Assembly (NCBI GenBank): GCA_010093995.1 | Contig: ML992501.1 | Span: forward strand, 2,545,320-2,609,319 | DNA from: Elsinoe ampelina | Taxonomy: Eukaryota | DNA: 64,000 nucleotides | Direction: 5' to 3' | Shown here: in pieces, positions 1,593 to 44,730 of the stretch | How the letters are laid out: every line of letters starts with the position of its first letter | Position numbering within the stretch: position 1 is the stretch's first letter | The notes under the pieces: generated by a model | What the model was told of the DNA's origin: nothing | What the model saw: the letters and a program-made list of their open reading frames with translations, nothing else | Database searches by the model: none | Position numbers and translations under genes: made by a program

Positions 1593-2099
1593 GACTGGAT
1601 GTGTCAGCTATGGTCGACCCCTGGCCGTGTGTAGTTTCGCACTTGTGGATGAGCTTGTGAGCGAGATCTGTGCTTGTTGGAAATATGCTTGCGTGATATT
1701 CTCGAGTTTTCAGGTTGATATGGAGCTGTGGGAAAAGTTATCCTCGTCCAAACTCGAACGAAGAGCTCAGGTACGCACCTCAGCAACGTCAGAGCGGGTC
1801 TAGCCGTGATATTCTTGTGCCCAAAAATCGCGGGATAAGCTTGGCGTTTTAGATAGCTGCACCCACCAAAATCCACCAATATTTGCCCATTTCGTGAATT
1901 ATTCATCCATCTCGCATCCATTTGAAGCCGAACTGGTCTATACTATTAATCCATCTCGGAGGCCAAGTTAGACATCTATCTAGCGCAAATTGGACCCTAT
2001 CTTAGATTACGAACTAGACGCGAGCTAGATTGCTATCTTATAGCGCTATAACTATCTCAGCTATCTATCTAAGATTAATGCGATCTCTAAGCCTTTTTT

Positions 2100-3085
2100 G
2101 AGAATAGAAGGACAATAGATAGCATATATAGGCTTATACCTTACCTCTTACGTAGCGCTATTAGCTAGAGGTGTAAAAATTAGCGTAATACTAGCTATAT
2201 TAAGCTTCTAATAGCCCTCTAAGATAGGGGTTAGCTAAGGACCCTTACTAACGAGATACTTAATAATCTTAAGCGGCTTATAATAGATAAGCCTAATATG
2301 TACTTAGACAAGTACGTAGAGTACCTTAAGCTTAAATAGAGAGTATTAGTGTTATAATCTACTATTAGTTATAGCCTCCTTTCTCGAGATTTACTACTTA
2401 AGGTAATAGGTCGGATTACTAGCTAGAGAGACAAGGGATTATATAGTACTTAGCGTAAGGATATTAAGTACTATTAGAGCAACTAGCTCGTCTTTGTTAA
2501 CAAGGCTATAGTAAGCAAAAGGTGCTTAATAAGGCGCTAAGGTCGTACTACACAAGGCGTACTAGTAGTAGATTAGATAGGCCGGCATATTAGTAAGCGC
2601 TTCTTAGTGCTTCTAGCTATTACTAAGGAGGGGTAGTTAAAGGATCCTATAGTCTTCTAAGGCTTAATTACTACTAAGATCTTCGAGGATTAGTTTTAGA
2701 ACTGCCTAATACTATAGTATATACCTTTTCTAGGCCCGTAGTCAGTAGTAGTACTAGATAATTACTCGATTCACTAGCGTGAAGTAAGCAAAATCGAATA
2801 TAAGTAAGCGCTAAGCTAACACTTTAGGTACTTATATATATTGCTTGTAGTTATAGGGTCGCTATTATCTTCCTACTAGCCTATTTACTAGATCTTAATC
2901 TAATAGAGAAGAGCTTCTACCTATTAAAGTAGTAGATGCGCTATTACTACTACCTTACGCTAGAGTAGCTATTACTAGAGTATTATAGCGATTTTATAGA
3001 CTTTATACAAGAGGCAGCTAATAGGTTTAGCGACAGTATAGATTAGAAGGCTATCTTTAGGAGTTGCGCAGTAAACGTGTAATAT
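2100..3085 (+). pseudogene. RIP-inactivated Tc1/IS630-type DDE transposase (boundaries approximate)
   Basis: Reads LVFVNKA (de-RIP LVFVDEA, ~2488-2507), PFLGP*SVVVLDNYSIH (PFPGPRSVVVLDNCSIH, ~2725-2775) and, after a probable intron, FLLAYLLDLNLIEKSF (FLPAYSPDLNPIEKSF, ~2870-2917). Confidence 0.85.
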
Positions 3086-3227
3086 TAACAGAAGGACTAT
3101 ATAAGCTTATTATTATCTATATTAGTCTTAATATTAGTCTTATTATTACGCTACGTATTATTCTATAGTGCTCTATTAATAGGTGGCAAATACTTACGTA
3201 TAAACCTCTAGAGAGACAACTAGATAA

Positions 3228-3733
3228 CGTCACGAAAACACTTTTCGTGGGGAATTGCATTAGATTGCATTAGATTGCGTTAGAAATGGACCTAGAGGTT
3301 TTTTTGCTTAGAAGTGCTTAGAAGTGAATCAGAACTACGTTTTTCTACTTTCCTGCTTTCAATTTAGAGTTTCTTGGCATATATTATATATTATAATAAA
3401 CTAGAAAAAATTCTACGTTTTTTGATATATAATTTGCTTATGTAATATAACTAGATTATTTTTAGAATTAGACTTAAAGTTTAAAACCTTATTTACTAGT
3501 ACTTAGAGTAGTATTATGTAAGCAAACTATATATCAAAAAATGCAGAATTTTTTCTAGTTTATAATAATATATAGGGAAAGTAAATTTACTCTAAATAGA
3601 CACGTAAAATCGCGAAAAACGCGAAAATAGTACGAAAAATAGTAAGGTAATATAACTCTTTTAGGATTTTCCAACGCAATCCTAAGCAATAAACCTAATT
3701 CCCTAACTCCCTACGAAAAGTGTTTTTGTGACG
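3228..3733. mobile_element. 506-bp foldback MITE with CGTCAC termini and 2-bp AA target duplication
   Basis: TIR cgtcacgaaaacacttttcgtgggga (3228-3253) vs 3708-3733 (2 transition mismatches); AA at 3226-3227 and 3734-3735; internal inverted arms ~3386-3447 / 3512-3573. Confidence 0.85.
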
Positions 3734-5909
3734 AAGGCTACAAAGGCTAAATTGTAGTATAGCCTCTTTAACATTGTTCTTTAATACCTTTTAAAGTAGC
3801 CTTATATTCTAATAGCTATACTTGAGGTCCGTAAAGGTGGCACTAAGCTGTGCTTAGTAAGCCGGATTTTTATGCTTAAGAAACTCGAAAAATTGGTAGA
3901 GGTAGGCTAGAGAGTTAAGTCCCTTAGCGTATAAGGAGAATCTATTACTTTAAGAGTATAGTAACCTTAAACTACGTTAAGCTAGATAATAAGAGTTAGT
4001 AGAGGTATTAGTAGAGGTCGGAAGAGGTGCTATAGGACTATAGCTATTTATAAAGAATTGTTAGTAGAGAGGGGGGGAGTAGAGGGGGTATAGTAGAGCC
4101 CTAGAGAAAGAGAAGAAGAACTAGCCTTTAATACCTTAGCGTTAGTTATGTTGTTTCTAAATCTAGTAATAGGCCTTCTAAATTTGCTTAATTACGTACT
4201 TTAAAGGCTGCTAGATAGTCGAATTGCTAGTGTAGAGGTCCTTACGCTATGTAAAAGCCACGTCCTTAGTAATAGAATAGTATATAATCGACTTAGTGTT
4301 ATCTATAGGGAAGTACGCTACTCGACGCTTATTTAGATAGTACACGCTAGTACAACTCTAAAAACTTCTTATATTAAGCTAGAATTAGTCTCGGAAGTGC
4401 GTCTTAGCCTAGTAATTACGTGCTAAGTTAGTGTGCACCTCCCTAAGGTTGTTCTAGCTTATTTAAGCATCTAGTAGTACGTACTTAGTCGGCGGAGAAG
4501 GCGCTAACTACTAAGATTATAACACCTCTAGAGAAGCGCTTAGCGTGACTAGCGTAACTAGCACCTCTACCGCTAGTGTAATCTATAACTCTCTAACAAT
4601 AAGCTTAAGGTACCGGACCTTAATATTGCTATAAAATTACAGCTGCTACTTAAGTCTATAATAGGAAGAGTCGAGGGCACTAAAGTCCTTAAAGACGGCG
4701 CATAGTTTAAGGGTATTTACACGGTTAAAGAGCTTAGCATTACAGTCCTTAATACGTGACTCGACCCCTATCTCGCTAGTAGTATAGTCGACGAGGCGGC
4801 TTAAATCTAGCTAGAGGCCTAATAGACCCTTAGTAGTGTTCCTAGCACTCTCTACGTTACTAATTATACCTCTATTAAGTTCGGTAATTCACTGCAAAAG
4901 GAAATTAACAACCCGTAGCTACGAGGAGGCTAGTAGTAAAGTCTTCTACTAGCTTAACACTTGCCGACTCCTCGGCGACAACGACATAACACTACGAGCA
5001 CTAGAGAAGTTAGAAATAGAGCGCTAGGTACCTTTCTAACTCTCTAAAGCCCCTTGTAGTGTTTGTTTGTTTATATTACTATCTTATAGTACTCTAAGAG
5101 GTTGTTAAGAGTTACTCTTAGCGTAAGTATAGGTTCTTAGACTATTAGTATTCTTAGCTCCCTTTTTTAGCTATCTTAGTAGAGTCTTTTTAATAGCCTT
5201 TATAACCGGCGCGTTCTTCTCTTTACTAGTTTCTATAGTTGTAGCTTAAGGTTTTCTTCTCTTACAACTAGTCGGCAGTTTCGAATAGATAGGCTTAGGC
5301 TCGAAGGTAGATAGTAGCTTGCTAGCTATTAAGTAGCTAGAGCGACATAAATTACTTAGAGAGTGTTTATTAGGCTCCTCTAATGCTAGAGAGTCTTAAA
5401 ATCGAACGTTCTAAGCACTTAACCGAGTGTTACTATCGCTTAGCGGAGTAGGTGTTTACTCTAAGTTCGAGAGCGGCAACGACCTTCTAGTAGCTAATAA
5501 AGTATACAATTGTATTACGCGTTAGATAGAACGTATAGTTAACCTCTCTTTATTAATCTTATAACTACTCTCTAGCTAAGGAGTTAGAGATTACTTAGAA
5601 CTCTCGATTAAGCTATCTAGTAGTAGTAATACTATAGAGAATTCAAGTAAACTATTTAGAGCGCGCTAATAGCTAATTCGAGCTTAGGTAGAAATATCGG
5701 TTAATAGGGACATTAGTACACCCTTAAATCCTATATTAGTTAGTTATCTAGCTTGATTATAGCTTCATAGGGGGTGTAAACCGTGTTAGGAGTATTATTT
5801 AGGGGTAAATTAGTGTCTACGTCACGAAATCCCTAAGCGTAGAGAGTTAGAATATTAAGTTTCCCTACGTTAGACTAAGTTCAACTACGTTAGGTCGCTG
5901 TAAACGCAT

Positions 5910-5995
5910 CCCACCTACCTGAATTTAGTTTAACACACCTCTACCTACTTAAATTCAGTTTAACGCACTAAACCTACCTTAATTTAGTTAAAGGC
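5910..5995 (+). repeat. Subterminal ~30-bp tandem repeats of the Plavaka element
   Basis: Three copies resembling acctacc/ttgaatttagtttaac.cac. Confidence 0.6.
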
Positions 5996-6169
5996 GTTAG
6001 CGAGATTAAGCGTAGAAGCGCTTTTGTAAGGGTATAAAAGTAGACATTTCCTACTTAGTTCTCTACCTTCCGATATAAGTAATAGACTAAACTAAAATAA
6101 CTTTGTTTTATTATACTCTACTATCTCTACTCTACTACTAAGGGGCTTAGTGTTATTAGCTATAAGTAG

Positions 6170-7750
6170 TTTTATGCGACTATCTAGCTAGGGACTAAGC
6201 TTATTCGCAACGAGAAGTAGCTCTATATAGCTATCGCCTATAAGTTCTACTACCTAGTAACTCGTATCGTTACTAGTGTAGAGGACTCTTACGGAGTAGT
6301 ATTCCTAAGCTAGAGTCGTAAATGTAAAGTAGCGTTCCTAGAAAAGGAGTTTGTCGTAATAGCTAAGACTAGGTATAAGATAGAGTATATATACCTTTAG
6401 GTCTATTCTAGTAGCTATTAGTCTATAGCGGTTATATAGGAGAAGAACGACAACGAAAGCTAGATATACTACGTTAACGGCGGCCGTAGTAGCGAGGTTA
6501 AGGCCTACTCTAAGAAGATTAACACTAATATAGATAGGTATAAGAGATGTAGTAGATATCTAGTTTAGGTTAAGCCGACTTCTTTTAGGTCGACTAACAC
6601 TAACTAGTACACCTACTAGAAGACGTACTTTAGGGCCGCTAAAGAGTAGCTTAAGAAGTAAGGCCTAATAGATCTCGGCATACTCTCGGAGTAGCCTAGA
6701 AGGTAGTACTAGAGACATCTACCCTCTATTAAGGGGAGCTACCTTATCCTTATACCGCCCCCTCGATTGCCTCGCTACATAATATAGCTAGCAAGGAGGT
6801 AACTACTAATAACTATAGGCTCCTTCCCCTCTCTCTCCTTAACCTCCTTCTAGCTTAATACTAGCGTTAGCCTCTGCCTTGCTAGCCTATCTAGTACTAG
6901 TTCCGGCAATTAGAGAAGTAAAGGAAGTAGCGCCTAGGTTAAGCTTGCCGCTCTTAAATATAGTACTATATGTCGAAGACAAGGCCACCTCGAAGCGCAC
7001 TAATCTCCCTAGCGTGACCCGCTGTAAAGTCGTGTCTATAGTAGATAAGGTAGTAGTAGTAACTTCCGCGGAGGACGTAGTAGTAGTAGCTTTAGCTACG
7101 GTGTACCTCTCTATAGCGGAGAGCGTAGATAAGAGTAGAGAGGAGAAGAGAGATATCCCCTACGCGGAGGCAAGTATAATAATACTTTCTTTTACTATAT
7201 CCCGCTACTCTACTATAACTACTACTAAGTAGTAGTAGTAGTAGAGCTAGTAATAGTACGTATAAGGATAATCTAGTTTATAATCTTATAGACAGGATCT
7301 GTCGCACATATTATGTACTAATAATCTTATAAGTAAATACTTACGATCTATATAGATATAGAGAAGACTTTAGGGGACAAGAAAGAGGCTACTCGCTATA
7401 CTAACGAAGATAACGCCTAAGTTTTCTCTCCTCCTAGGCTTAAGCGGCTCTATACCTATATTACGTAGCTACTTACAGTTATAGTTATATACTATATTAT
7501 CCCCTACTCTCTAGAAGGCGTTAAGTAGGAACTCTCTAGCGTTATTACTCTCTATAGAGGTAAGTCCTTCTTCGATAAGCTTCCCGTAGCTAGAATAGAT
7601 ATTAAAATCGATAAGCATCTTTCGGAGAGAGTCTTATAAGCTAGTCTTATCGGGGGACTTATAATAGAGAAGGAGTAAACCTCTTAGATCGCCGACTTAA
7701 GTCTATCTACGAAACTAACCTAATAACTACTTATTTACCTACACTTTTCA
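6170..7750 (+). pseudogene. RIP-degraded cargo ORF, possibly with a Ulp1/C48-like protease domain
   Basis: One frame is interrupted mainly by TAG/TAA of RIP type; IYL*VYSSSY*SIAVI*..IYYVNG de-RIPs to I.L.VHSSGHWSMAV...IYYVDG at ~6389-6481. Confidence 0.35.
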
Positions 7751-7959
7751 CCGCCGTTGTAAAATATGCATAGGATACCTAAACTTCTTAAAGGCCGAGA
7801 GATATCTATAACGCCTCGCTATAATTTTCTAAGCTATTGTAATTAGTATAGGGGTAAACTGGCCCTTTAACGGGAGATCGTTATAAGGCGTCTTATGCTG
7901 CCTACTATATATAGTTTAGCGACTAACCTAATAACGTACAGGTGTAAACTAACTAGCTA

Positions 7960-10900
7960 GAGTAATACCTACGAATATTATCTTATCTTTTTTACCTAAC
8001 ATAGTTTAGTAGTCGACCTAAGCGTACCTAAGGCGAGGCAGTTAACGTAAGAGACGACCGTTCTAGCTACAGAAGAAGTGCTTAAGCTTCGTTAATGCCT
8101 CTTACGCTTGCTAACTACGCCTAGGGATCTTAGCCTCTCTCGTTTAGAAGCCTTAGCTAGGTAGAGCTACTTAGACTCCTACGACTTATTCTATAGCATG
8201 TTATATATGTTAAAGTCGGCCGTATTATTAATATATATCTAGCTATTCGGCCTTGTCTTATCTACTAGCACAACGTGGATACTATAGTAGATTTGCGAAG
8301 TAGAGTAGACACGCCTACTAGTAAGTGTGTTTCGTCTAGCTCTATCGCGTCGATTCGTCTAAGGCTTAATTAGTGTTATACTATGCTCTCGATTAGCTAC
8401 TCTATCCGGCCGAGTAGGCTAGTATAGATCTACTAGCGCTCCTATATAGTATAGGCGTTAACGTCGACTCGATCTACTAGACTAGAAGCTATCCTCTATA
8501 GTTATTATAAACACAATTCGAGCTAGTAACTTACCTTAGAGACTATTAGGTAATACTCTAATAGTGCCTTCGTTATTCGTTGTCTATTCTTATACCTAGA
8601 GCTAGTCTCGCCTCTTATTGCTACGTATCTCTTACTATTTAGTTATACACTAGATAAAGTTTAGTTTGTCTATATTAGAATTATTAGGATTATAGTCGGA
8701 TAGCTTTCTACACTTTAAAGAATAGTAGAACTTAACGTAGAGGTCGCTAACCTAGGAAGAATCTAGTTCGAGTCTATCGGGATCTAGTTTAGCGTCGAAC
8801 TAATTAGAGTATTTAGTTATTAAGCTAGAGCCTATGTCGGCTATACCTTAACGAGCCTCGCGGACAAACACTACTATTACTTGCTACAATAATAGCCTAG
8901 GTAGCATATTAATAAGCGCCTCTAGTTCTCTAACTATACGCTATATAGCCTCCCCCTTAGTACTAGGCTAGCCGAACTAAGAAGTAACATTAACTGTATT
9001 ACTTACGCTAACCGGCGTACTCTAGATCTTAATTAGTTTAGTAGCCGATAGCCTAACTAACTTCGAGGGGTCGTCGAATACTACTAATATATTTGCTAGT
9101 TTAGTGTTATAAGTAGTAACCTAGTCTTCCTATCTAGCCTTCTTATTCGTAAGTTTAAAGGCGTCCTTAATAAAGCGAACATAGTTATACTCTGAATAAT
9201 TAGAATCGAGGCTAGTAACTACTTCGAAATTATAGATAGCCTTTAAAAAATGTATTATTAAGTACTATTTCGGAAAGTTAAAGTTACTCTCTTCTTTTCT
9301 ATCGCTATAGTAGGCCCGGAAGGTCTCTTTATACTTGTTTATTCTAAAGAGCGCGAGGTTAATATACTAGAGTATATTATTGTTGTAGGTCTTATAGTTC
9401 GCTAGTAATATAAAGTCAACTAGTGCGTATATAAATTTAATAGCTTAAGGCGCCTTAACCTTCTTAAGTAATAGCATAAATACTAGGAGTATCTAGCGTA
9501 TAATACTCTTCTACTCTTAACCTATCTATTACTTAACGGCCAAGTAGTACGGGAAGTGTCGAATGCTAGGAAACACTAGTATACTATCGAAGCGCTTATC
9601 GATAATATTAAGCATAATCTTCTTTGCCGAGCGCTAGTAGCCTGTTCGCTATATAGTCTCTCTAGCCCTTATATACCGTAGTAATTTATATATAGGTATT
9701 AAATTCTAGAGCAATTTTCAAATCTAGTATAGGACGTACATTAAAACGCCTTTAAGAAGTTAGTATAGAATATCTAGCACTATCGCGTAGTAAATATTAG
9801 TACACGGAAGATCCTACGTAAAGTAACTAACCTTATAAACCTAAGAGCTCGTATCTAGCTTTTCGCTCTACTACTAACTCTCGCGTGCCTCTCTCTATAA
9901 GCGCTATTATTGCTACGTAGAGTAGTAAGTTCGGAACGGTGTAGTAACTACTAGGTCCTCTCTCTCGTCTTTGCTAATAAGGTAGCTTATACAATAATAC
10001 AGTAACTTTACACCTGTTATAGTGACCTATTCGGCGTAATTCGTAGGTATAGCGGCAAGTATAGAGAAGCACCTCCGCCTCTTTCTATCTATATAGGAGA
10101 TTATTTTGCTCTCTCTTAAGTAACAATCAACGACGGGGTTAAAGATTTTCTTTATATAAGTGTAGTAGATCTTCTTCTTAACGACATTTCTACTGTCTTT
10201 AATAATAGAAAGTAAGCCGATTAGTAACTACCCCGGCTAGTTGTTGCTATTACGTGCTTCTACCTTTAGGTTGCCTAATAATAGATAGACGGCGTGTGCT
10301 ATAAGATCCTCTTAATAGTTTATTACCTAGGTCTAATCACTCGCGACGATTAATGGGATAATAGTAGCTCTAGCTATCCTAAGTCGCTCTTGTACGTCCT
10401 ACTACTAGTCGCCGCTTACTATTTCGGTGTATACTTGTCATAGTAGCTTACTCTCGACAGCTTCTATAAAGACTCTATATAGGCTATAGTCTATGTCTAC
10501 TACGAAGCTACAATAACCGAGTAAGAAGCGTATCGCTAGAAGAATATCTAGATACTAGAACGTATGTCTTTTAGGCCCACGATTAGTGTTTAGTATAAAG
10601 CTTAAGGTCTGCTAGCTATTAATACCTCCGGCCGTATCTAAATTTTCTATCTTCTCTACTAGTTCATTCGTAGTTCGCTAACTAAGGCTCTCTACTAGAG
10701 GTTATATACGTAGGTCTTTAAGTAATTACGTAATTACGGCTTTACTAAGTTTTTCCTTAACGAGCTACTAGGCAAGACTAGCGTCTATGCTATTAATAAA
10801 GGCTTCCTTTAGTTAAGTATCGCCTAACTAATTATAATTTAGTTTATTATATATGTCGGTGTACATGTTATGCACTTAAGGAGATCTAGATAACGTTAGT

Positions 10901-11630
10901 CGACGTAGACTAAGCATAAACTATATCTATTACTAACTCTTCGCTACTAGCCGGTATACTAGTAACTGTCTCGAACGTAATACGATCGGATGTAGCTCTA
11001 CTAGACGAGGACAATCTCCTAGCACTCCGCCCTATAGATGTACTGCTAGTTATGCTTGCTGTAATTACTTACTCTTCCTCGTGCGTACCTTCCCTTATAA
11101 CCTCTTCTATGCCCTTCTCTTCCTTATACGCGATGTGGCCGAGCCTACCGCTACTATCGCTGTCTACTTTACGTGCTAGAGGATAATAGTCGAGGTTAGC
11201 AAAGAGACTAAGGGGATCGTCCGCTATAGTATGCTATATAGTAGGCGAAGAGGGGAGGACACCCCGCGCTAACTATAGACTATTGTCTCTACCTCGTTGT
11301 TTAGTTCGGTTCTTAGTCCTTGTAGTTAGCGGCGAAGTTAAGTAGACTACTAGGTCATTTAGCGTCGGCGGATTATGCTATGCATTGCTACTAATACTAC
11401 GTCGTTAGTCTTTATTAGATAGTAAGCGCTCTTCTCTATTAGAGAAGAGAGAGTTATTACTAGCGTTATCTTCGCGGAGATATCTATTAGTACATTAATC
11501 TAGTAAGACTTACGCCTTATTACTTATTAGTAGCTCTCTCCTCTAGTAATACAGTAGATGTTAGACGAGGCCTCTACTAGATTATATAATCTTTCTATAG
11601 GCCGAGCATTTAGTAATACGCTTTAGCATA
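7960..11630 (-). pseudogene. RIP-inactivated Plavaka transposase (boundaries approximate)
   Basis: Ordered motifs after de-RIP: FWY.DIL.AIRFLLG (~10520-10560), YTEMVSGDWWWDVQERL..GATIIPLIVASDQTQ..AVYLSLGN (~10270-10435), PDILHQLLKGV (~9745-9780), IDKRFDS.PVFPGIRHF..QWTG (~9520-9605), FNFPKWH..H (~9255-9285). Confidence 0.9.
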
Positions 11631-11779
11631 TTAGTTCTTATTATTTAATATTTACATTTGTAGTTAGAATTAGCACTTCGGATTTGTAACGATAGTAGGA
11701 AGTAAGACGTTTAGGCGCTATATTATATTAGTTTACCTAAAAGATAGTTTAACATATACTAGCACCTAAATCGGTCTAC

Positions 11780-14700
11780 TAAACTAAGGAATTATATTCT
11801 TAGGTAATATAGTTAGGCTATTTATCTAGTAATATTAATTATTTCTCTAGATTAACCGTATTCTTCTTCGCTATAGCTTGTACGCGTGTCTATATCTTAG
11901 CCCTCTACTTCTCTATTTCTTCGTAAATAACTTTCTATACTATTAACGGCCTACCCTATCTACTATTAAGCCACTTCTAAGGCCTATAGAATAGAGCTAT
12001 TAGCTTTATTATAAACGCCTCTATGTGGTTAGCCTTCTAAGACTTAATATTCCTACGGACCTAGGCGAGACACTAGAGGACTAATCGTAGCACCGACGCT
12101 ATATTAAGCAAGATTATAGTGTCGAAGCGGTTAAGGTTTAGACTAGTCTTAATCGCCCTACCCTAAGCAATTAGGATCCTTAAACCTTCTAGCCTCGGGG
12201 GCTTAATAAACATATTATTAAATATAGCTACGTTAACAATGTCTATACGGGAAGGTATAGGTGTTATTCTATAGTAGATAACAACTATATTAGAATCCTT
12301 ATCGATCTTAATTGCTTTACCGTCTAGGTGCTACTCGAGCTATTTTAGATACTATGCCCTTGTTAGTAATAACCTAATTAAACTAAATAGTTTAAACTAA
12401 CTATCGTAGCGACTGCTAGCACTAAAGGTATAAACGTATAGACGATTACTTGCCTCTTTAACTACTTCGAGTAGGAGACATTCTACTTAATAATCTCAGA
12501 AATAACACTACGAAGGACTTATATCTAAGGACTAGCGTGAATCTTGTCTATATGCTACTATAACGCTGTCGCCGAGGAGTTACGTATAATATCGTAGGCG
12601 TACTTAATAGTGTAGTTGCTAAACTCCTCTTTAACCGTAGGGCTATTCTAGAAGATATCTATAAGAGCGAGAAACATAGAGAAAAGTAGTAGCGGCGTAA
12701 CTAGGCTTAGTATTTGCTCCTTAGTCTTCTTATTAAGAATCGTCTCTAATATAACTTTAGACTTATTAGGTTTATCCTTTTACTTCTCGATCGCCTCCTA
12801 TATACTCTTATCTATATCCTTTTCGATCTTCTTCTATGTAGCTATAAGACTATAAAGATACTTATTCTCGATAGTAATCTCTAGGTCGAATGTTAAATGC
12901 GGTAGGACTCTAACTACTAGCAGACCGGGGGTAGTATCGAATAGTTTCTAGACATAGTCTACATTTATCTTAATAAGAATTTCAGTAAGAATGTAGCCCT
13001 ATTTAGTAACTGTTATAGAGATCTCTACTATAAACTCTATACTCCTCTTTTTGTTAAACTTACTAGAGTCGTTATTCGCCTTATACTATTTGTTAATTAC
13101 GTAGGCATAGTCCGATGCCTCTTAGAAGTTAAGCTTATTAGCGATAGCTCGTCGAGTAGCGTCTAGTTCTTTCTTCGGCCTTACTTAAACTAGGTTGTCC
13201 TTAGACTTAGTTAGCTTCTAACTAGATTTATAGATATAGGTGTTAATATATTATCCTATTCCTTTTCTATTTTTAAGCTTCTCTAACCTAAAGTCCTTAT
13301 ATATAGTAGCCGTTAAGAACGCTACTACGTTTAAGCACTTAACAAATAGCGTCCCGCTTATACCTAGTATAAAAGGCCTCTCTAGTAGCATTCCTAGACA
13401 GGACTAGGTCTACGTCTTCTAGCTAGTGACCTAGTGGAACTCATTGAAGATAACAGCGGCCTAATAGATAGAGATAGCCCCCTTCTTCCTCTTAGCTCCC
13501 CTAGGAACAAAGTTCTAGTTATTAGTATCTACGTTGTCTTTGCTAAGGAAGTAGTTAATTATAGTATCGCAAGTAGTAAAGAAGAACTAATTATTTATCT
13601 ATGCTTTCTTAGGGTACTTATTACGTATATCGACGAGGTCTATAACTCTAATAGTGTTAATAGGCTTACTAGTCTTTCGATCTTTTAGCTAAGTCTCCTA
13701 TTTATAGTAGCCTTTAGGTAGATCCTCTTCGTAAACTAAAGAGTCTATGTTATATACGTTACTATACTCTGTCTTTTACACTTCTTTGTTTAAATTTCCC
13801 TAGCATAGGACGATCTTTGCCTTAGGCATAAACTTACGTGTCTCTTACGCTTACTATTTTATTACGTTTAATTCTCTAAGAATTAGATTATAGCTAATAG
13901 TATCGGCAGAACTAATAGTTAGCTATAGGTTGTCGACAAGTGTCGTTGCCTTCTAGTACTTGCTCTATTACTCCTCGGATATAGTAGCATATCTACAATC
14001 CTTTAGCACCTCTTTATTTAAGAGTAAAAGGAGATAGAGTATAAAGAGGCCTATCGGAGTCTTCCCGAATTCTATCTTATATGTAAACACAAATACTAGG
14101 TAGCCTTCGAGGTACTTCTTAATTGTAATAAGCGCTAAGTACATCTATGCTGCCTCGACTAGATACTTCTTGTTCTAATACTAATAAAATACACTAGCGT
14201 TCGGTAAGTAAATGTCTTTCTTAAAGCCTATAAAGTTATAGCCTCTTTCCTAGAACTCTTCGGACTAGTAATTGATTCTAGTACCTACGGGGATAAAGCT
14301 CTAGTAGGCTAGATCATTACTAGTTTACTTGTCGTTATTGTTGTTAATAGTATAAAGTTCGACGAAGTTAGAGCTGCTAAGGGTCTTATTAAACGTGCAT
14401 TTTGCTAGTGCTAGTATAGGTATAGATAGCTCCTTAGGGACTAGCGGAATATAGTATCTAGCTAACTCTTTGCTTAGTATAACTATAAAGGGATATTTAT
14501 CTATGTCTCGGCATTGCTTGTAGTATTTATCTTCTATCACTCGAGTAGGGCGCTACTCGATAGTAGGATTATCGTCGGCTAGCGGTAGAGGAGTAATTCG
14601 CTTTTTAGGGGTAGAGTTACGTAGTAGTATAACCTTAGTCGGAGATAGAGGAGCTAGAGGATTATCTTCTTCTTTACCCTCGACTAGGGCTAATAGCTTC

Positions 14701-15820
14701 CAACTATTACGATACTAGAGGGGGTCGACTAAGTATGTTAGTAAACACCCGAGTTAAACTAAGTGTTAAACTTATAAAGTACTTTAGTAGAAAGTTTCTT
14801 AACGAGATTCGTACTAGGCGTAAGATAGAAGAAGATTAGGTTAGAACCTTCCGTTAGGGAGTTAACATAGTTAATAATAGCGGCACGTAGGTCGTAATTA
14901 TCGATAATAGGGAGGATCTTATATAGCTCTATATAGTCTATCTACACAAGTATAATGTTATTACTAATTAATTTCTTCTCCTTTAGAAATAGCCTAATTT
15001 TGTTAAGGCTATATATATTTAGATCGTAAGTGTCCTTATCTCGTCGATAGTACTATAGACTTAACGCCTATAGACGATATAAATATTCTCTTTTTATAAT
15101 TATGCCCGGACTAACGTCTAAATACTTAACGCTTATAAACTTAATAATAGTTTTGTCGATGATACTCTAGACTAGATAGGACGTGTCTTCTAGCATTTGC
15201 TACTAACGTATAGGCTAACTAGTGCAGCTATTAAGACCTATACCTACGAGTCCGCTACTAAGTATAGAAGTCTCTAATCTTTCGGAGAGTCTACTATTAG
15301 ACTAGGTAGTAGAGTAGCGCTTTCTAATCTACTTCTTAGGATATACTCTCTCGTCTACTTCGGTCTAGTTCTTCTCGTTCCTAAGCTCTTACGCCTTAAT
15401 ACTAAGGACGAAATCCTTAATAACATTACGGCCGGATATATCGTTTATAACGCCGACGTTCTTCTTAAACTAGTCTTAATCGTAATAGTTTAGTCTCCTA
15501 AAGAAGATCTCTATATAGCCTTACTAAGGGTCCTATAGGTTATTCTTAATGTTAATTATAATCGTAGCTATATTAGCGTTGCTAGTCTAAGGTTCCTTAT
15601 AATCTAATTCGAAAGACGTATAGGTATCCTTATATAGTTCCTATGCTCTTACGCGTGCGGCGGTGTATATATCGTCGTCCTAGTTAAAGAATTTAAGGAA
15701 GAATGCCTTAAGCTTAATGTTCTAATCGAGCTATGCTTAAATATCTATAGGAGATCTCTCGTAGAGCGGAATTTCGCTTATAGCCTAGCTAGCGCCGTTA
15801 GGCTAATTCTTAGACATATT
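11780..15820 (-). pseudogene. RIP-inactivated SNF2-family (SF2) helicase/ATPase carried by the Plavaka element (boundaries approximate)
   Basis: Motif I FTYKIEFGKT -> FAHEMGFGKT (14058-14087); Ia QWAQETRKFMPKAKIVLCWG (~13797-13857); II VIFNEFH -> VIFDEFH (13434-13454); III ISGTL -> MSGTP (~13347-13362); V ILIA.GRAI.TGLNLNRFDT.ILLD and VI QCLARVRR (~12050-12180). Confidence 0.8.
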
Positions 15821-17094
15821 ATATACGTTTATAAGCTTAGTATATACTATAAATAAGGCTTTAAATAATGTCTAGTAAACAGATCGAGTAGGTACGATAG
15901 ATGTTAAGTAAGAGATCTTACGAAGGTATAGCGTGTTTATAAGTTTAGAAGAATTAAGGAGAGGATTTATTAACGTAGCGAGTCTATACACTTTGTAATA
16001 TATGTCTAACTAAGACTTGACTAAAAGAAGAGATATCCTATTTAAGAGCACTTAAAATAGAGATTAAAGAGGTTAAAGAAGTGCTAAAGAACTGCATAAG
16101 TTACTTGTTTATAGCTAAGAGAGGGTAAATAAAGATAAATAATAGCGACAAGTAAGAAGAGTAGTAACCTAAATTTAGTCGATTTAGGTCGGGCCCTAAA
16201 CTAAGTACGTAGGTAGTGTACTAGATACAGCGTACATGTAACAGTAGATAACTTAGTTTAGACACTAAACTAATAGTAACTATAGTCCGTACACTTAGTT
16301 ACCTTTCGTTTTATATAATGTGTAAACTAAGGATACTACTATTGTTATTAGGTACTTAACGTAAATAGATTAAACTATATTTTAGTAGCGGAACTAAATT
16401 CGTATACGAGGCATAAATAGAATATAATTAGACAGTATATAGCGGAATAAGGGACATAGTATAGCTTATAGACGCTAGTAAAGGAATAAAGAAAGTTATA
16501 TACTACTATCTAATTGTCTAAACTTTATAATTGCTATATGCGAAGCTAAGGGGTAGAGTAGAGTAATAGCTATATATTCCGCATAATAAGCAATTAATAG
16601 TACATTTCACAAAATTATATATACGCTTTATTCCTCGCCTAGCTCCGCTATAGAGGCAATAGCGAAGGAGGACGCTACGGGTATAGCTCCGCCTAAGACG
16701 CCTTCTACTATAAGCTTATAGCTCGAAGGAGGTAGTAGGCGTACCCTTACCTACGATATGCTTCTATATTTCCCCCTTTGTTACACTAGTTGTAACTCTA
16801 CTATCCTGTCCTAAACATTCTTATCTTATAAGGTAGGCACTCCCTAGTAGACACCTTCTTCTCTATTCTCTTCGTATATGCTAGAACCCCTAATAGCGTA
16901 GTTAGCAGCGTAGGAGAGCGCTCTATAATAGATTCGTTTAGTCGTAGCTACTAGGCGGAGACAGTATTAGATTCTACCGATACTACGTAGCTAGTATAGA
17001 GAATACTATAGAGGAAGGTAAAGACGGCGAAAGGGAGAGAGCCGTTAAAATCTCCTACGTATATAGAAGCCTATATCGGCGCAGTCGGCAAGAT

Positions 17095-17405
17095 AGAGAG
17101 GTATATTAACATAGCTTTACTTAGGTATAACTACTAGGTAGAGACGGTGTTTAATCCTACTAACACTACGCTATTAGTGTAGAGGATGCTATAGGGGGCA
17201 GTAGTAACGTCGAGAGAGAAGAAGGTGTCGAGGTCTCCCTATATATACTTAGGCGCGCGGCGGCGTAGTCGGCATAATAGAGAGGTACACTATAATAGAT
17301 TTGCTTAGGTGTAACTACTAGGAGGAGACAGTGTTTAATCCTACTAACACTACGCTACTAGTATAGAGGATACTAATAGAGGCGGTAGTAGCGGCGAGAG
17401 AGAAG
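17095..17405. repeat. Two diverged copies of a ~125-bp segment about 183 bp apart
   Basis: cttaggt.taactactagg..gagac.gtgtttaatcctactaacactacgcta..agt.tagaggat at ~17120-17188 and ~17304-17371. Confidence 0.8.
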
Positions 17406-20400
17406 TCGATATTAACGTCGCTATTATAGATACGACAATAGATAATTGTAGTACACTAGGCAGGGGCGTCGCTTTAATAGATAGTTAGCTATTGTCGAGG
17501 TTAGATAGAGGGGAGAGTATAGGTTACACTAGTAACGCTAACGTCTATAATTAGGTTAGTGTAGGCAGAGAGTACAAACTAAGGCGTTATTACGCATTAT
17601 ATATACAGTGTAGCTCTGTCGCTACAGATCGAGTATATAATATAAATATAAGGAGATAGAGTTAGATACGTCGAACTTTAAAATTTTACAAGTTTTAGTT
17701 TAGGCTAACTAATTATAACTAAGTAACACTTAGGTATATACCCCTTATAAACTAAGACTTACGACTTCTAAGGCTAATCTATCTCGAGCGACACTCCTAC
17801 CTAACTGCTAACTATACTGCCGCTTCCCCCTTTCCTCTCTACTCTCCTTAGCTACACTTACATCTACTTCTTATTAACTAGCGATGTACTTAATCGAAGC
17901 TATTAAGTAAGCCCTCGCCCTCGACGACAAAGGCTATAGAGACTTATATAGTCTCTTAGAGGATATCATAGTAAGTAAAGGCATAGTTAGAAGAACATTT
18001 AGGTTAATTTCTAATAGGAGAAGACTAGAGAAGAAGATGCTTCCGGTAGTACTAGACAGTAATAACATTCGATGTACGTTTCGGCATACGATAGAGCTAT
18101 TAGAGAGCGGCGACAGTTAAGCTACCTTCTATACTCTCGTCTATAAGATAAGTACGAACTTTAGACGTTAGTAGGTATAGTTACACTTAAGATTATATAA
18201 GCCTAGAGGGACATAAAATAATACTAACACGCCTACCTCGATTAAATCCTCGGATCGCTAATTGTAATTATAAGCGCCTTCGCTCTCTAATCGATTAAAC
18301 AATATGCTATTAGTAGTTCGTAAGGATAGAGAGATACGCCCTGTCTACTCGATTAGAGATCTCCTACTTATACGTCGTAAAGCTATAGCTAACATGTCTA
18401 AAGAGAACGTAGATATCGAGTTTAATTAGCTAAGAGTAATATCGATTATAACGGACTACTATATATACAATAGGCAAAGCGATATAATAGGGTAGAAGGA
18501 CGATAGAACGCTATATTTCGCTACGATAGAGAATGCTATTTAGTTTAAGGCTGTTATCTTGTCTAAGATATTACATAGTTCGCCTCTATATATCCTAATA
18601 AGGCGACGAGATTAAGGGAAGCATCTAGCGGAGACAAGTATAAAGCATAATAGTCCGGTAGTAGACTAAGTCGAACTAAAACGTAGTAGGTAAGCCCTGC
18701 TAAGCCGTACCTACTACTAAACCCTAAGGATTTAGTTTAACTAGCACGCTTTATCCTTCCTTACCTTCTAACTAGATCGACCTATAGAATTATTCGTATA
18801 AGCTATCTTTCTATAATTAATTTATTTAGTCTAGTAGTATCCTTATATAAGGCTCCTAAGTATAGATATTAACTACACCGACCTTGTTTCTTTAGTAGCT
18901 AACATCTAGACTATAGAATTAAGCACGTAGGCTTCTCTTATTTGTTTAGGTATAGAAGTATAGTCTTCCGACGGTCTACCTAACTAGTTCGGGCCTTAGC
19001 TTAGAAGCTCTCTACTAGACACGTAAGAAGAAGAGTATAATTACGTCGGTAGCTAGTAAAAGCAACATAGGACTCGGTGGCCTAAATAGCTTAATAGATA
19101 GCAACTCTTAGAGGAAGACATTACACTTATATAGTAGAAGGTAGGCTAATTACGAATAATAATAGAGGAAAACGCTAGCGCGATTAGACAACTATAGTAA
19201 GAGAACTTTATACTTAGGGAGCATATTAGTAAAGCTTTTCGGGGGTTTAGTGTTGCCTCTACGGACCTTACTAGGGAGTTTAGGGGCTTATTTAGATTAG
19301 ACAAGAGTATACGGCGCTATACTAATAGTACTACTCTACTATTACTAAGTATAGTTACCGATAGCTAATCGACGCTCGCCTCTCGTAGTAATATAATTAG
19401 TAGATAATAAGTATCTCCGTCTAGCGTACCCTATTTAGACACACTAGACTACGAGGTAGAGAGCGATTAGTGCTTTTAACACTTAGAAGACGTTCTACTT
19501 AGTAAAGGGGGGGCTACTAGCGTAATTAGTAAGGGAGCTATAGTATAAATTATACTACCTATCTATATATAGAAGAGCTAATATCTATAGTCTCTCGAAT
19601 TAGTTTATAATTGCTTAGTATAAGTTTAATCTACAATTTCTCTCTATAATATTCTACCTCTAGTATTGCTTAACGTAACTATAAATGCCTTGTTTAGTTT
19701 AAGTATTTAGTCTAAGTAAGTTCGAGCATCTTTCTTTTTTAGTTTAGGTTCTAATAATTAGCACGCCGCGAGTTAGAACTAGCTATAAGTTCAATTTAAT
19801 ACTCTTGCTAGTTACAATTTCTGTAGAGTATAGGCGGATATAACTAGATTTAATTAGAAGAAAGTCGCGTACTCTAAACACTAAACTAAGCCGTTATCTA
19901 ACTTAAACTAACGCTAAGTTACTATAACTCGTATAAGACGACTATTCCCGTTATAGTATACATTGTTAGGGCCCGTCGTGCTAAACTCTCTTATACCTAT
20001 ATACCTCTTAACTAAAACGATTAGAATAAGTAATGTCCTAGTTACGTTAGCGTCGGCATAGCTTAGGCTATAAGGCCGATAATTATTACAAAGATGACAA
20101 TTTAAGTTAGGTAGACTAGAACGAAGAAGAGTATAGCTTTATTAGTAAGGAGAGCTAGGCTAACTATATAGGCCGCAAATACAATATTAAAGACAAAGGA
20201 GAAGGTATAGATCGGACATCGCTACGCTTAATCTAAGATTAAGAGAGCTATAAGCCGATAAGAATAGCCTAGCGTTAGCCTCTATACTAGTTCGGTTAGT
20301 AAAACGACATTTATAGGACATACTAAACAAGTATAGTAACATCTTCGTAGTAGTATAAGACAAATTATATATAAGTACAGCTATTAGGTAGAATTATAAT

Positions 20401-23046
20401 ACAATGTTACTAACGTTAAGTAATCGATAGCTCCTTATGCGAATTATAAGGCACTAGCGCTCGATCCGTAAGTAGCTACTAGTAGCTTATCTATAGAGGA
20501 CAATAGGTAAATACTCTTCCGCAATTATAGCTAGTAAAGTATATTACTTACTAAAGTTAATTACTTGCTAATAACGTCTAGCTCCGAGAGACGCTCTACT
20601 ATAGTTATAATAACATTACACGATTAGTAAGCGAGATACTCTAGCGCGAATAGCTTATATAAGGGCTAGAGGATAGCGAGCTACCGAATTAGGCACGTAA
20701 GCTACTAGAGGAACAAATGTATTAATATAAGGATAGTAATCTAGTATACAATAGATGTACTTATTAATTAACTACTAACGTATAGCAGCGGAAACGCTTT
20801 AGAAGTTCTTTAATATATAAAGCCTTCCGAGTAGCCTTTATTAGACGTAGAGGCTTAGCTATAATAGATAGCACTCGCTATTACTTCTAGGAACTAACAC
20901 TCTTTCTCGTCTTCTCCCTTCTAGTAACAATTTATATACTCTTAGTTAAGTAAGCAAATAGTGTTAAGTTCTACTTACCTAAGGGAGTAGTAGTGTTCTA
21001 TCGTATTAAACCCTTAGAACTCGATTATGTCCGACTAAGTATTTAAAATAACTTTCTTACGTAGATTAGCTAGAGATAAGCTCTTATTTTTCGTTAGCTA
21101 AAGCTTAGCTTTACTAAGTGTATCGAGAAGAATAGGCTTACTATTATTATAGTAGTATCGAATATTTCTCTTTATACTACTACTATAGAAGGGTTATTAG
21201 ATAAGAAGGATATATACTAAAGGTGTATAGATACCTTCCTATTTTAGTTTAGTCTATCTAAATTTAAACTAACCTATAGAGAAGTTACGTGCTTAAGGGC
21301 GGACCTAATTGTAAAGGGGATAGCTATAATATAGCGCCGGCACGTAATGCTTCTACTAAGTAGCTAGTATAAGGTAGGCTTAATCGTCCTATTAGCTTTT
21401 TAGTCTTAATATAAATAGATAGAGAAGAGCGTTAAGCTAATAATAAACACTTAATCGCTGTATATTAAGGTACTACTTAGTTCGTGTATAGGAACGGAGT
21501 ACTAAAACACTATATAGCTACTTCTATAGTATAAGCGTAACTAGCGTAAGTGCCTAATATAGACAATAACCTTGCCGTAACTATAACTACAACTGCGACT
21601 ACTCCTAAACTAGGTTAGGTTGTAGTTAGAGTATATAAGGAGGATTAATAGACTTATTAACAACATTCTTATAGGCTACTTAATTATACACGTACTATAC
21701 TATCCTAAGAACCTAATAGCGATTTACTAATAATAGAGGCATAGTAGAAGGATTTCTTAAATATATAAACATAGATAAATTTTTTGTCCTTTATACGTAA
21801 GGAGTTTAGAGGCTTATTACGTAAACTAGTATTATAGTACTAAATAGCCTAGGGGCGTAGTAGTAGTAGCTTAGTAATAGAAGGGGATAGACAACTACTA
21901 GATAGAGATGCTTTCCTAGAACTAATAAGAAGGGATATTAGATCGTAAGTAAATAATATATACATTGTTATTAAGAGGAGCGTCACGTAGAACATTAAGT
22001 AATATATATATACTCTTAATAATCTCGTATCCTTACTAGACGTAATAGATAGTTAATAAGGCTTTGTGTGTTTTATAGACATACGTGATACATACTACGA
22101 GGTAGGTAGTCCAAAATCGAGCTGATTGCCTTTATAACAACGAACTAATGGATCTGTGAACTAAGAGACACCCTAACTAAGACGAACTAATGCGTCGGGA
22201 TGCGCTATACACCATCGCATTTTGCGTGTGCTACGTTTGGTAGGTTCTTGCAAAAAAAAATGCGTTGCTTCCAAGCAGGACCCAGGGGTGACTAGGGAAT
22301 TGCATCGAACTGAATCGGACTGAGTTAGTTGCTTGGAAGCAGTCCAACGCAGCTCCCTAGCGTTAGGGATTTCGTGACGTAGTCACGCAAATTCGCGGAG
22401 GGCTTGCCAAGCTTATCCCGCGATTTTTGGGCACAAGAATAGAGCCGAAACAGTCCGAGCTCCAACTGGCGATGACGGTGGGAGAGACTTGTTGCTCCGG
22501 CCCTCAACACTCCACTCGATATCGCACCCATTGAGTGACCACTTCTTCACCACCGTGCCTGTACATATACATCCTCTTTCTCAACCAATTCTGAGCACTC
22601 TGCTTCTTTCATCGAGCTGTCGCCGCACTCGCCACGCGTGGGAACAGCGACAAATACTTTTTTTTGACCCCTCCGAGAAATAAAGCGGGGCACTTTCCTT
22701 CAATTCGACGACACATCACAAAGACACGCCACGACAGAACAAGACCATTGAGGTTCAGGAACGCAGAGAGGGATAAAGTAGTACATGTGAGTATAACCTC
22801 TTTATCTTTGCTGCCGCCGCCTCGCCGAACATCGCTGCCCTGGAGATCTCGCCGACGACGCTTCACCGCTGAATAATCCTGGATATCTGGATTGCATAAA
22901 GGACCATGGACAGCTCCTCCAAGCTTTCATCGACAGCACGTGTTGAGGATAGCACCAATTCAGCGACGGATGAATCACAAGAAAGGTACATTGCAACACA
23001 TGACGAGACTAACACGCTAGGAGAGAACATCAGCTTCAACTACAGA

Positions 23047-31739: not shown

Positions 31740-32124
31740 TGTATGAGTTGTGCTGTATTCGAGCTTGTTTACGATTAGACGGGGGTGGCGAACTGCATTG
31801 TTTGGTTCATGGTCTAGTAGCAAGTGGTCAATCGAAGTGATGACCAGCAATTTGCGTGATTTTACGACCGTCTAATAACGGCCATTCGTTGTTGAAAGGT
31901 AATATGAGAAAAGAAAATGGTGTCGAGTGTGGTGGTACAGGACGAGCACGCGTAAAGTGGGTCGCGGTATCATGTGATTGCCAAGAAAACAATTAAGATT
32001 CCCGATTTGGGACGCGTCTGACTACAGGTGCTCTTGTTGTCTTTCACTTTGACAGCAACTCTCAGAATCGCACAGCCAGGCCCTTCTGCCGGTCTGCAGC
32101 GATGCACTCGGACTTCAGACAACC

Positions 32125-44390: not shown

Positions 44391-44499
44391 TAGCGAACAT
44401 AATACCTATATATTCTCCTAGAGTTTATAGACTATAATTTTACCCCCTTTATATCGCCTCCTCTAGTCGATATTAAATCGTAACTATACGTACTACGAA

Positions 44500-44730
44500 T
44501 TGCTTAGCGAACTACTAGCGATCCTACTTACACTATCTACCTTGTACTATCTAACTTACACACCGCTATCTAACTCGTTACTGCCGTCTAGCTCGTACTA
44601 CTATCTAACTTATTACCGCTATCTAACTCGTATACTGCCGTCTAGCTCGTACTGCGAACTAGTCTACTACCTATTTAGCTTGCACCGTAAACTGTTCTAC
44701 TACTATCTAACTTACACTGTCTAATTCGTA
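44500..44730 (+). repeat. Degenerate tandem repeats (ctatctaact../actgccgtctagctcgtact) inside the element
   Basis: Recurrent ctatctaact and ctgccgtctagctcgtact units. Confidence 0.7.

Follow-up and report, generated by a model that had tools for sequence, protein, structure and literature searches.

The window analysed here is a stretch of 64,000 nucleotides from Elsinoe ampelina (positions 2,545,320 to 2,609,319 of the forward strand of contig ML992501.1, assembly GCA_010093995.1), in which ordinary fungal genes at GC 0.50–0.58 are accompanied by two AT-rich blocks. The larger block, at ~2000–22100, has a GC of 0.33–0.39, a TpA/ApT ratio of 1.8–2.6 and a (CpA+TpG)/(ApC+GpT) ratio of 0.22–0.40, as against 0.4–0.7 and 1.2–1.6 for the two ratios in its flanks. 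It carries the classic signature of repeat-induced point mutation (RIP), with edges marked by a change of composition at ~1950–2050 and ~22100. Within it lies a 16,560-bp DNA transposon, here called the giant element, which holds the relic of a Plavaka transposase gene and, directly upstream on the same strand, a second coding relic with motifs that can be read as those of an SNF2-type ATPase. We suggest, with a probability of roughly 0.7, that this second relic (minus strand, 11780–15600) is a RIP-destroyed, complete but divergent gene of the SNF2 family (Snf2-like, helicase superfamily 2, SF2), and that it formed one 16,560-bp transposon together with the Plavaka DDE transposase. The features of the block are collected in Table 1.

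Table 1. Features of the RIPed block, in window coordinates. TIR, terminal inverted repeat; TSD, target-site duplication; an asterisk within a peptide marks a stop codon; 'compatible' refers to codons read with C>T and G>A decay allowed.
Feature	Position	Strand	Evidence and remarks
Inner DNA transposon, classed as Plavaka-type, CMCT clade (giant element)	5820..22379, 16,560 bp	.	empty-site contigs, TIRs, TSD; fully RIPed
TSD TA, left copy	5818..5819	.	sequence and two ambiguous letters at empty-site joint
TSD TA, right copy	22380-22381	.	sequence
Left TIR, 5'-CGTCACGAAATCCCTAA...	5820..5849	+	comparison with reverse complement of right end
Right TIR	22350..22379	-	sequence, terminal-motif scan
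Order within giant element, in gene orientation			TIR 22379; ~6.8 kb with 184-bp x3 tandem repeat; SNF2 gene ~15600-11780; transposase gene ~11400-8100; ~2.3 kb; TIR 5820
Transposase gene relic, rough extent	8100..11400	-	RIP-invariant purine/pyrimidine coding potential
Plavaka transposase domain relic	9739..10671	-	PF18759, E=5.8e-33, 114.9 bits (cut-off 26.3), single read-through frame
Putative SNF2-type ATPase gene relic, approximate	11780..15600	-	motif sites, coding measure, profile chain
Relic N-terminal region	14700-15600	-	third minus frame
Relic lobe 1	12561-14699	-	frame A
Relic lobe 2	~11800-12560	-	frame B, which is the frame of the Plavaka domain
Motif I (Walker A)	14058..14084	-	observed TYKIEFGKT, compatible with A[HY]EMG[LF]GKT; sole RIP-compatible site
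Motif II and upstream W	13434..13463	-	observed *AAVIFNEFH, compatible with WAAVIFDE[FL]H; E and H literal
Motif III, site (a)	13347..13358	-	observed SGTL, compatible with SGTP; 29 codons past DE.H, in frame
Motifs V and VI	12052..12144	-	observed SLNL ... *CLA*VRR; same frame, spacing 23 codons
Second II-III-like pair, site (b)	12951..13111	-	VINK*Y (compatible with VIDE.H) and LTEILIKINVDYV*KLF (compatible with LTGTPI.N..D..W.LF)
Tandem repeat, ~184 bp, three copies	16868..17415	.	self-BLAST; purine/pyrimidine-space repeat scores 129-131
Outer element, 4.06 kb	1812-5817 and 22382-22439	.	34-bp perfect TIRs (TTCTTGTGCCC...), TA on both outer sides
Miniature element, 506 bp, GC 0.28	3228-3733	.	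giant-element termini (CGTCACGAAAAC... / ...GTGACG), 2-bp TSD AA

The boundaries of the giant element come from contigs of two DNA runs (X1 and X2; one sample, same organism) that were aligned to 3000–22600 at an identity of at least 80%. Contigs of both runs connect 5817 directly to 22380, skipping 16,562 bases and sharing two letters, and a pair of TIRs and a TSD lie at the coordinates of this empty-site joint, which delimits 5820–22379 as a separate transposon of 16,560 bp whose TSD is 2 bp long. At the insertion site the letters read TA followed by CGTCACGAAATCCCTAA... on the left, and ...TTAGGGATTTCGTGACG followed by TA on the right. The termini are thus 5'-CGTCACGAAA..TTTCGTGACG-3', of a CGTCAC..GTGACG type, with a perfect 17-bp TIR that starts 5'-CGTCACGAAA. 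The two TIRs are identical at 17 of 17 terminal bases and at 24 of 30 overall, and at 27 of 30 in a purine/pyrimidine code. Searched for in a RIP-degenerate form, the terminal motif occurs at five sites in the window (four termini and one unrelated site) against 0.42 expected, and the same scan found no further termini of the CGTCAC family inside the giant element. A scan of metagenome contigs for the TIR gave 0 matches.

Three other accounts of the 20-kb block as a whole were discarded. A long terminal repeat retrotransposon and a Starship were rejected because long direct repeats are missing even in purine/pyrimidine space and Pfam scans of the read-through frames showed no reverse transcriptase, integrase or tyrosine-recombinase domain. 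A single 20.6-kb element bounded by a 36-bp inverted repeat at 1810/22441 is overruled by the empty-site joint and the second, inner TIR pair, because of which this inverted repeat is assigned to the outer element. As a separate observation, the target letters beside the giant insertion at 22382–22395 (GTCACGCAAATTC) resemble the element's own terminus (CGTCACGAAATCC), which could reflect chance or a preference for terminus-like targets.

The transposase is recognised by its domain. The PF18759 match, found in the minus read-through frame of 5602–11301, spans profile positions 4–318 of 325, and Plavaka is the sole family within the Pfam cut-off in read-through frames over 1801–22202; the other Pfam row, ENTH, stays below threshold (E=0.18, 12.3 bits, cut-off 24). 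Since PF18759 was detected in a RIPed frame, a strong family match can survive this level of RIP. The RIPed transposase read-through gave no match at E<=0.001 in a word-index protein search among 8000 candidates. By RIP-invariant coding potential the gene runs through 8100–10800 in the Plavaka frame and through 10800–11400 in another minus frame, with rough boundaries. The domain above cut-off is joined by TIRs and a TSD in the short range (2–5 bp) of Plavaka and CMCT transposons. The two named subgroups have other ends, 5'-TGT..ACA-3' in PlavakaA and 5'-CATCA..TGATG-3' in PlavakaB, according to the available part of the source (Kojima 2025, PMC12730594). The termini of the giant element agree with neither, and its TA duplication recalls the EnSpm-like ESTA transposons, for which reasons we give it no subgroup. 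On its domain and its ends we class it as Plavaka-type, of the CMCT clade, outside both named subgroups.

The element is clearly present in tens of differently RIPed copies. Short contigs on 3000–22600 number 4908 in X1 and 3825 in X2, and those of X1 spread over all degrees of likeness to the window (1010 at >=99%, 1035 at 95–99%, 1718 at 90–95% and 1145 below 90%). Their differences from it are almost exclusively transitions, in both directions (A>G 465, T>C 456, C>T 504, G>A 537), with 1–30 transversions per type. Summed word depth, a rough guide only, reaches ~4,100–6,100 in the SNF2 bins and ~7,900–11,100 in the transposase bins, with ~180 for a contig identical to this copy. The RIP indices are alike over the helicase and transposase regions (TpA/ApT 1.8–2.1, (CpA+TpG)/(ApC+GpT) 0.26–0.34), and every copy seen is dead through RIP. 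Two runs guessed to be RNA, X3 and X6, contributed no more than 1 and 4 contigs respectively, which fall on the right edge and on 5399–6519; they constitute no evidence either way. An earlier sequence-only reading of the window had placed an SNF2-type gene at 11780–15820, upstream of and co-oriented with the Plavaka transposase, as heavily RIPed as the transposase and repeated along with it. The minus-strand position of the transposase domain, the equal RIP indices, and the multi-copy contigs with both genes inside one TIR- and TSD-bounded element bear this arrangement out.

The helicase relic might come from a different mobile element, nested in or beside the Plavaka gene, so that the two would be accidental neighbours in a RIPed graveyard. 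The block is proven to be nested, since an outer Tc1/mariner-like element contains both the giant element and the 506-bp miniature one; in addition, the inner element varies in depth along its length, and RIP hides the short termini of other families. Against this, none of the four joints among those listed falls near 11.7–15.9 kb, the giant element has no further CGTCAC-family termini in its interior, no repeat pairs bracket the helicase region in purine/pyrimidine space, and no other transposase or reverse-transcriptase domain was found in 5.6–22.2 kb. The relic also shares the strand of the transposase gene, and the two coding regions abut. We consider such a foreign origin highly improbable.

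That 11780–15600 was coding is suggested by a measure which RIP leaves unchanged, the usage of purine/pyrimidine triplets, trained on eight intact flanking open reading frames (ORFs). On the minus strand it is positive at 12001–12300, 12601–14400 and 15001–15600, in agreement with the extent given by the sequence-only reading, and it also flags the transposase frame and the Tc1-like relic, which serve as internal controls. Frame A (14699–12561) and frame B (below ~12560), which correspond to the two lobes, contain long stop-poor stretches; stop-codon density per frame did not discriminate. The C-lobe of the helicase and the Plavaka domain share a reading frame on the minus strand and are 468 codons (1.4 kb) apart.

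The motifs were sought with a RIP-aware reading in which, codon by codon, any T may derive from C and any A from G. Motifs I, Ia, II, III, V and VI had been claimed as recoverable in the right order; under RIP-compatible reading, and on the minus strand, this holds, I, II and III sharing one frame and V and VI another, in canonical order. The forms quoted for them (AHEMGFGKT, DEFH, SGTP, GLNL and QCLARVRR) are nowhere literal in the six frames of 11000–16500, and GLNL is the single one of them that is literal anywhere in 2000–23000, at two places outside the gene region, 4798 (+) and 6505 (-). Each of the long motifs AHEMGFGKT, DEFH and QCLARVRR has exactly one RIP-compatible site on both strands of 2–22 kb, always on the minus strand. 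For motif I this site is at 14084, where GKT and the following P-I-G are literal and the SNF2 block I scores 14.4 bits, rank 1 of ~120,000 positions; the ancestral form, proposed earlier as AHEMGFGKT, may instead have been AYEMGLGKT. DEFH would derive from NEFH at 13445, and the TAG six codons before the D codon is compatible with TGG. At site (a) of motif III the codons AGC GGG ACG CTA give S-G-T and an L that may derive from P, with G-T literal; the block score is weak (0.8–2.7 bits). Motifs V (12144) and VI (12075) are compatible with GLNL or GLDL and with QCLA[RQW]VRR.

SNF2 proteins are distinguished by a motif III of the form [ST]GTP, not SAT or TAT, and by a W about six residues ahead of DE.H. 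The RIP-compatible codons of the relic accommodate both signatures. At the codon frequencies of the two coding frames, frame A should contain 0.012 matches to [ED]MG[LMIF]GK[TS] and 0.005 to W..[LIVM][LIVM].DE.H; it contains one of each.

A profile built independently of the window gives evidence for an SNF2-type gene. Prokaryotic genomes were scanned for DEAH.IKN; a length filter kept 73 ORFs from the 120 loci obtained, these yielded a hidden Markov model (HMM) of 576 columns, and each codon of the relic was scored by its probability of arising from a profile column under C>T/G>A decay. In the test that we accept, only in-frame codons are scored, the background is the codon frequencies of frames A and B, and the null is codon permutation. 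The I-Ia-II-III chain then reaches 19.5, 21.4 and 17.9 bits at r = 0.25, 0.35 and 0.45, as against null means of -14, -12 and -13 (standard deviation ~5.3, maxima 8.4–12.7), and none of 3000 shuffles per r attained the observed value. The chain falls at 14099, 13892, 13460 and 13373, the motif sites already named in the sequence-only reading. When the block was tiled into 90 real segment-frames, none but this one was clearly positive (20.6 bits; all others <=1.4). The N-terminal RecA-like lobe thus has the SNF2-type arrangement, with I, Ia, II and III ordered in one frame. A DEAD-box profile from 22 prokaryotic proteins, put through the same test, scored -13.6 and -7.8 bits and was equalled or beaten by 1856 and 1349 of 2000 shuffles. 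The assignment to the SNF2 rather than the DEAD-box type, as had been proposed, is supported by this contrast. In the C-terminal lobe, block V scores 8.4–11.3 bits and is by itself reached by 4–6 of 1000 shuffles at r = 0.25 and 0.35.

Several other statistics were set aside. Markov-2 nulls for the chain (z 3.5–6.1) were too lenient. Nucleotide-level scoring of codon shuffles had the real sequence beaten by 1552 of 2000 and 1000 of 1000 shuffles, because shuffling creates RIP-depleted trinucleotides out of frame. A gapped alignment of the whole profile was captured by a compositionally odd insert at ~3200–3750, the miniature element. A RIP-aware Smith-Waterman alignment to a single sequence, E. 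coli RapA, was not significant, and among 14 proteins aligned pairwise in the same way only two, both retrieved through motif I, reach z 3.1–3.5.

The same motif I leads to real SNF2 proteins. A scan of metagenome contigs for EMG[LF]GKTP[IVM]G returned 12 loci; nine have DE.H at +89 to +106, eight have [ST]GTP at +120 to +136, and all five that were tested carry PF00176 and PF00271. Five of the loci read AYEMGLGKTPIG, near the TYKIEFGKTPIG of the relic. The small SNF2-related proteins among them (L159, L160, L161, L163 and L166, ~470–570 residues), which are probably prokaryotic or viral, share with the relic the Walker A variant EMGLGKTP[IV]G, a likeness that arises by construction because they were retrieved with that motif. 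In L159, L163 and L166 the motif is preceded by A-Y, as in the AYEMGLGKT reading of the relic. All but L160 have [ST]GTP 30–31 residues after DE.H, in the SGTP form in L159, L163 and L166. They differ from it in the distance from motif I to II (89–106 residues, against 209 in the relic), and RIP-aware alignments to them are weak (z 1.1–3.5).

A number of observations weigh against reading the relic as an SNF2 gene that belongs to the element. In the C-terminal lobe, the V-VI chain is reached by 126, 467 and 1585 of 3000 shuffles, so that this lobe alone is not significant; the profile score of motif VI is poor (-14 bits), a WNP signature cannot be read there, and the N of GLNL could equally derive from D, giving GLDL. 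GLDL is generic to SF2, and a spacing of 23 codons between V and VI is common to all SF2 helicases. Spacing is non-canonically long elsewhere, with 209 codons from I to II and 405 from site (a) to V. For motif III, site (b) outscores site (a) by 10.9 to 0.8 bits (rank 4 of ~120,000); it lies in the frame of the first pair, 117–124 codons downstream, and precedes motif V by a canonical 282 codons. Extra sequence inserted between II and III, an ancient duplication within the gene, or chance might each account for it. Searches of the raw translations found nothing: Pfam on six read-through frames of 11001–16501, with stops as X, gave 0 families at E<=1, so that PF00176 and PF00271 stay short of their gathering scores on the RIP-mutated translation, the only one to which Pfam was applied; phmmer with 720 residues of frame A against 1.84 billion representatives gave 0 hits; and the 73-protein SNF2 HMM, with filters off, gave no match at E<=100. 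In simulated RIP with 39–44% loss of G/C, strong SNF2 members keep 28–40% of their score (299 to 120, 234 to 66 and 249 to 83 bits) and a weak member is lost (115 to 7 bits). Because raw HMMs are blind to the relic though simulated RIP spares strong members, its ancestor was either divergent or has decayed beyond RIP, and divergence from canonical SNF2 is thus indirectly indicated. Gapped alignment of the whole profile was not significant or was dominated by the compositional artefact, and the DEAD-box family is the sole rival SF2 family for which a profile was tested. Neither phmmer nor the metagenome scans found an intact relative or a second linked example; some copies may lack the SNF2 gene, because transposase depth is about twice SNF2 depth; and the family assignment is based on RIP-aware statistics for a gene seen only as a fossil.

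Taken at their most severe, these points would mean that there is no SNF2 gene, the motifs being chance products of permissive RIP reversal in AT-rich, coding-like DNA, or parts of some other P-loop or SF2 protein. The uniformly negative raw searches, the C-lobe chain with its poor motif VI, and the comparison with a single alternative family would all be expected then, and several earlier statistics did prove to be artefacts. Short motifs are indeed frequent under RIP-degenerate matching, with 77 SGTP-compatible and 15 GLNL-compatible sites in the block. Such chance readings do not account for a lobe-1 chain that falls on previously noted sites with a window-independent profile and is reached by 0 of 3000 in-frame shuffles, nor for its being the one positive chain among 90 real segment-frames with a negative DEAD-box control. 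Several residues stand literally in the sequence and owe nothing to RIP reversal (G-K-T-P-I-G, E and H in DE.H, G-T in SGTP), and this variant of motif I is also found in genuine PF00176 proteins. We regard the absence of an SNF2 gene as quite improbable.

If the gene is accepted, it could still have been passive cargo, a host SNF2 gene or retro-copy captured by transduplication and amplified without serving the element. Cargo would show the position inside the element, the shared RIP level and the multi-copy state that are seen; the twofold difference in depth is what a dispensable gene would give, and no second lineage with the same linkage was found by phmmer or in the metagenome scans. Captured genes are usually fragments. 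Here ~3.8 kb of sequence, on the strand of the transposase gene and contiguous with it, appears to hold both lobes and a coding region for the N-terminus, and the sequence is too divergent for general SNF2 HMMs even when RIP is allowed for, which fits a long-resident, fast-evolving element gene better than a conserved host remodeller copied recently; neither point is decisive. We hold capture as mere cargo to be unlikely. That the element carries an SNF2-type gene is, in turn, well founded, because relic and transposase share a multi-copy element bounded by TIRs and a TSD and having an empty site. The sequence-only reading had gone further and proposed that the element encodes its own translocase; the SNF2-type gene inside the 16.56-kb element agrees with this, and the role in target access or anti-silencing that it attached to the gene is conjecture.

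The surroundings add to the history of the locus. The giant element lies 24 bp inside the right end of the outer element, which contains on the plus strand at ~2000–2900 what we take, by eye, to be the relic of a Tc1/mariner (DDE_3-like) transposase (LVFVNKA..., and VVVLDNYSIH at 2745); Pfam found no domain in 1801–5702. The giant element thus jumped into an older Tc1/mariner-like element. The miniature element has an internal hairpin (3384–3448 / 3511–3575) and an empty site of its own, a joint from 3225 to 3734 in four contigs per run. Because it has the same termini as the giant element, ends of the CGTCAC type were mobilised, and because its TSD is AA, TA is perhaps not obligatory. The 184-bp repeat inside the giant element, upstream of the SNF2 gene, has copies that are ~74% identical in letters and stand out clearly in purine/pyrimidine code, and a joint from 17009 to 17475 in one X2 contig marks a copy-number variant. 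Beyond it, one plus frame is positive in the RIP-invariant coding measure at 18301–18600, 19201–19500, 21301–21600 and 21901–22200, which hints at a further gene on the opposite strand within 18300–22200, with no domain recognised.

Outside the large block, the flanking genes, among them Prp1, ESF1, Npa1, a hexokinase and a NACHT/ankyrin NLR, are Pezizomycotina-like. They include an intact gene for an AlkB-like 2OG-Fe(II) oxygenase with a GRF zinc finger (32053–33408, plus strand) and an intact NLR-type gene pair of the filamentous-ascomycete kind, with PNP_UDP phosphorylase-like, NPHP3_N/NACHT and many ankyrin repeats (33543–38494, minus strand). The second RIPed block, ~5.7 kb at 43121–48797, lies between 60-bp inverted repeats (88% identical; CATACGGTAGCTTCCGCCAAAAC...) and has on its minus strand a weak, sub-threshold match to an integrase core (PF24764, rva_4, E=0.0014, 18.8 bits with the cut-off at 26). 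This block, too, is probably a dead DNA transposon.

Accessory genes are known from other Plavaka transposons. Fungal families with a TET/JBP dioxygenase gene have been reconstructed from Agaricomycotina (Kojima 2025, PMC12730594). As far as the available part of that paper describes them, they resemble the giant element in the Pfam Plavaka domain, in cut-and-paste transposition with TIRs and a 2-bp TSD, and in having an accessory gene for chromatin or DNA modification beside the transposase. They differ in that the accessory gene here is of SNF2 type, the termini are CGTCAC..GTGACG, and the host is RIP-active with Pezizomycotina-like flanking genes, all copies seen being dead. In the red alga Bostrychia, giant Plavaka elements of 17.4–19.1 kb carry tandem repeat arrays and, next to these, the accessory genes PAG1-3, of which one is for a DNA methylase-SET protein, one for a ParB-like 2OG-oxygenase and one for an unknown product (bioRxiv 10.1101/2025.02.11.637652). 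Size (16.6 kb here), several kb of additional coding capacity beside the transposase, an internal tandem array (16868–17415 here) and the theme of chromatin or DNA modification are common to both. The types of accessory gene and the kingdom are different, and in the available text of that preprint SNF2 appears once, in an unrelated context. The ESTA transposons are EnSpm-like, with TA target duplications, and their transposases are described in the same available source as RAG1/Transib-like by HHpred (Kojima 2025, PMC12730594). The TA duplication of the giant copy and the membership of its transposase in the wider CACTA/EnSpm-Mirage-Chapaev-Transib group recall them, unlike the AA of the miniature element and the RAG1/Transib-like character of ESTA transposases.

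Helicases and SNF2 proteins also meet transposases elsewhere. Fungal DNA transposons of the AcademH, KolobokH and Helitron types have an SF1 or SF2 helicase beside or fused to the transposition enzyme; in what is available of that work their helicases are DEAD/Helicase_C-type or Pif1-type, in transposon superfamilies other than the present one, and SNF2_N figures only as a host partner domain (PMC10799480). CSB-PGBD3, a primate fusion of the N-terminal part of the SNF2 protein CSB with a piggyBac transposase, likewise brings an SNF2-family protein and a DDE-type transposase into one expression unit, but by the available account it is a case of a transposon trapped by a host gene and not of one that carries an SNF2 gene (PMC3459987). 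Full-text literature searches, which extended neither to supplements nor to subscription literature such as the paper of 2014 in which Plavaka was defined, found no report of an element-encoded SNF2 protein in the Plavaka/EnSpm group. We find it plausible that the SNF2 type is a new type of accessory gene for giant transposons.

We suggest the following course of events. In an active family, the transposase would have excised and integrated the element at its CGTCAC termini, and the SNF2 ATPase would have been an accessory protein encoded by the element. By analogy, its most likely part would have been that of an ATP-driven DNA translocase, which opened up or remodelled the chromatin of the element or of its targets, and such remodelling may have aided transcription, transposition, or escape from silencing by heterochromatin and DNA methylation. 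Amplification to tens of copies would then have been followed by the RIP inactivation of every copy seen. An accessory role in chromatin is favoured because the known Plavaka accessory genes all act on DNA or chromatin marks and because the gene appears complete and co-oriented. In a more general form, a family of autonomous giant cut-and-paste transposons in RIP-competent ascomycetes might encode its own Snf2-type remodeller, to counter silencing or to assist integration, an idea that we put forward tentatively. The remodeller may have been expressed jointly with the transposase or, as the shared reading frame would allow, as a fusion with it. It is a similarly speculative thought that what TET/JBP, methylase-SET and 2OG-oxygenase genes do for other Plavaka elements would here be done by an ATP-driven counterpart, a fourth independent solution to one and the same problem.

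The recovery of the gene also holds a lesson in method. Standard HMM and sequence searches were blind to it, purine/pyrimidine-invariant and RIP-aware scoring with frame-matched nulls recovered it, and naive nulls gave false confidence. Since the gene is dead in every copy seen, the relic by itself is a fossil and not a working system. The accessory genes known from Plavaka elements, TET/JBP in mushrooms and rusts and methylase-SET and 2OG-oxygenase in red algae, are read in the available literature as counter-measures against silencing. If our reading is true, this repertoire would be widened to nucleosome or DNA translocation by an SNF2 motor that the element brings along, and the pattern would take in RIP-active ascomycetes as well. 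There would then also be a concrete candidate whose intact form could be sought in related fungi, where the idea that such transposons bring their own remodeller would be directly testable.

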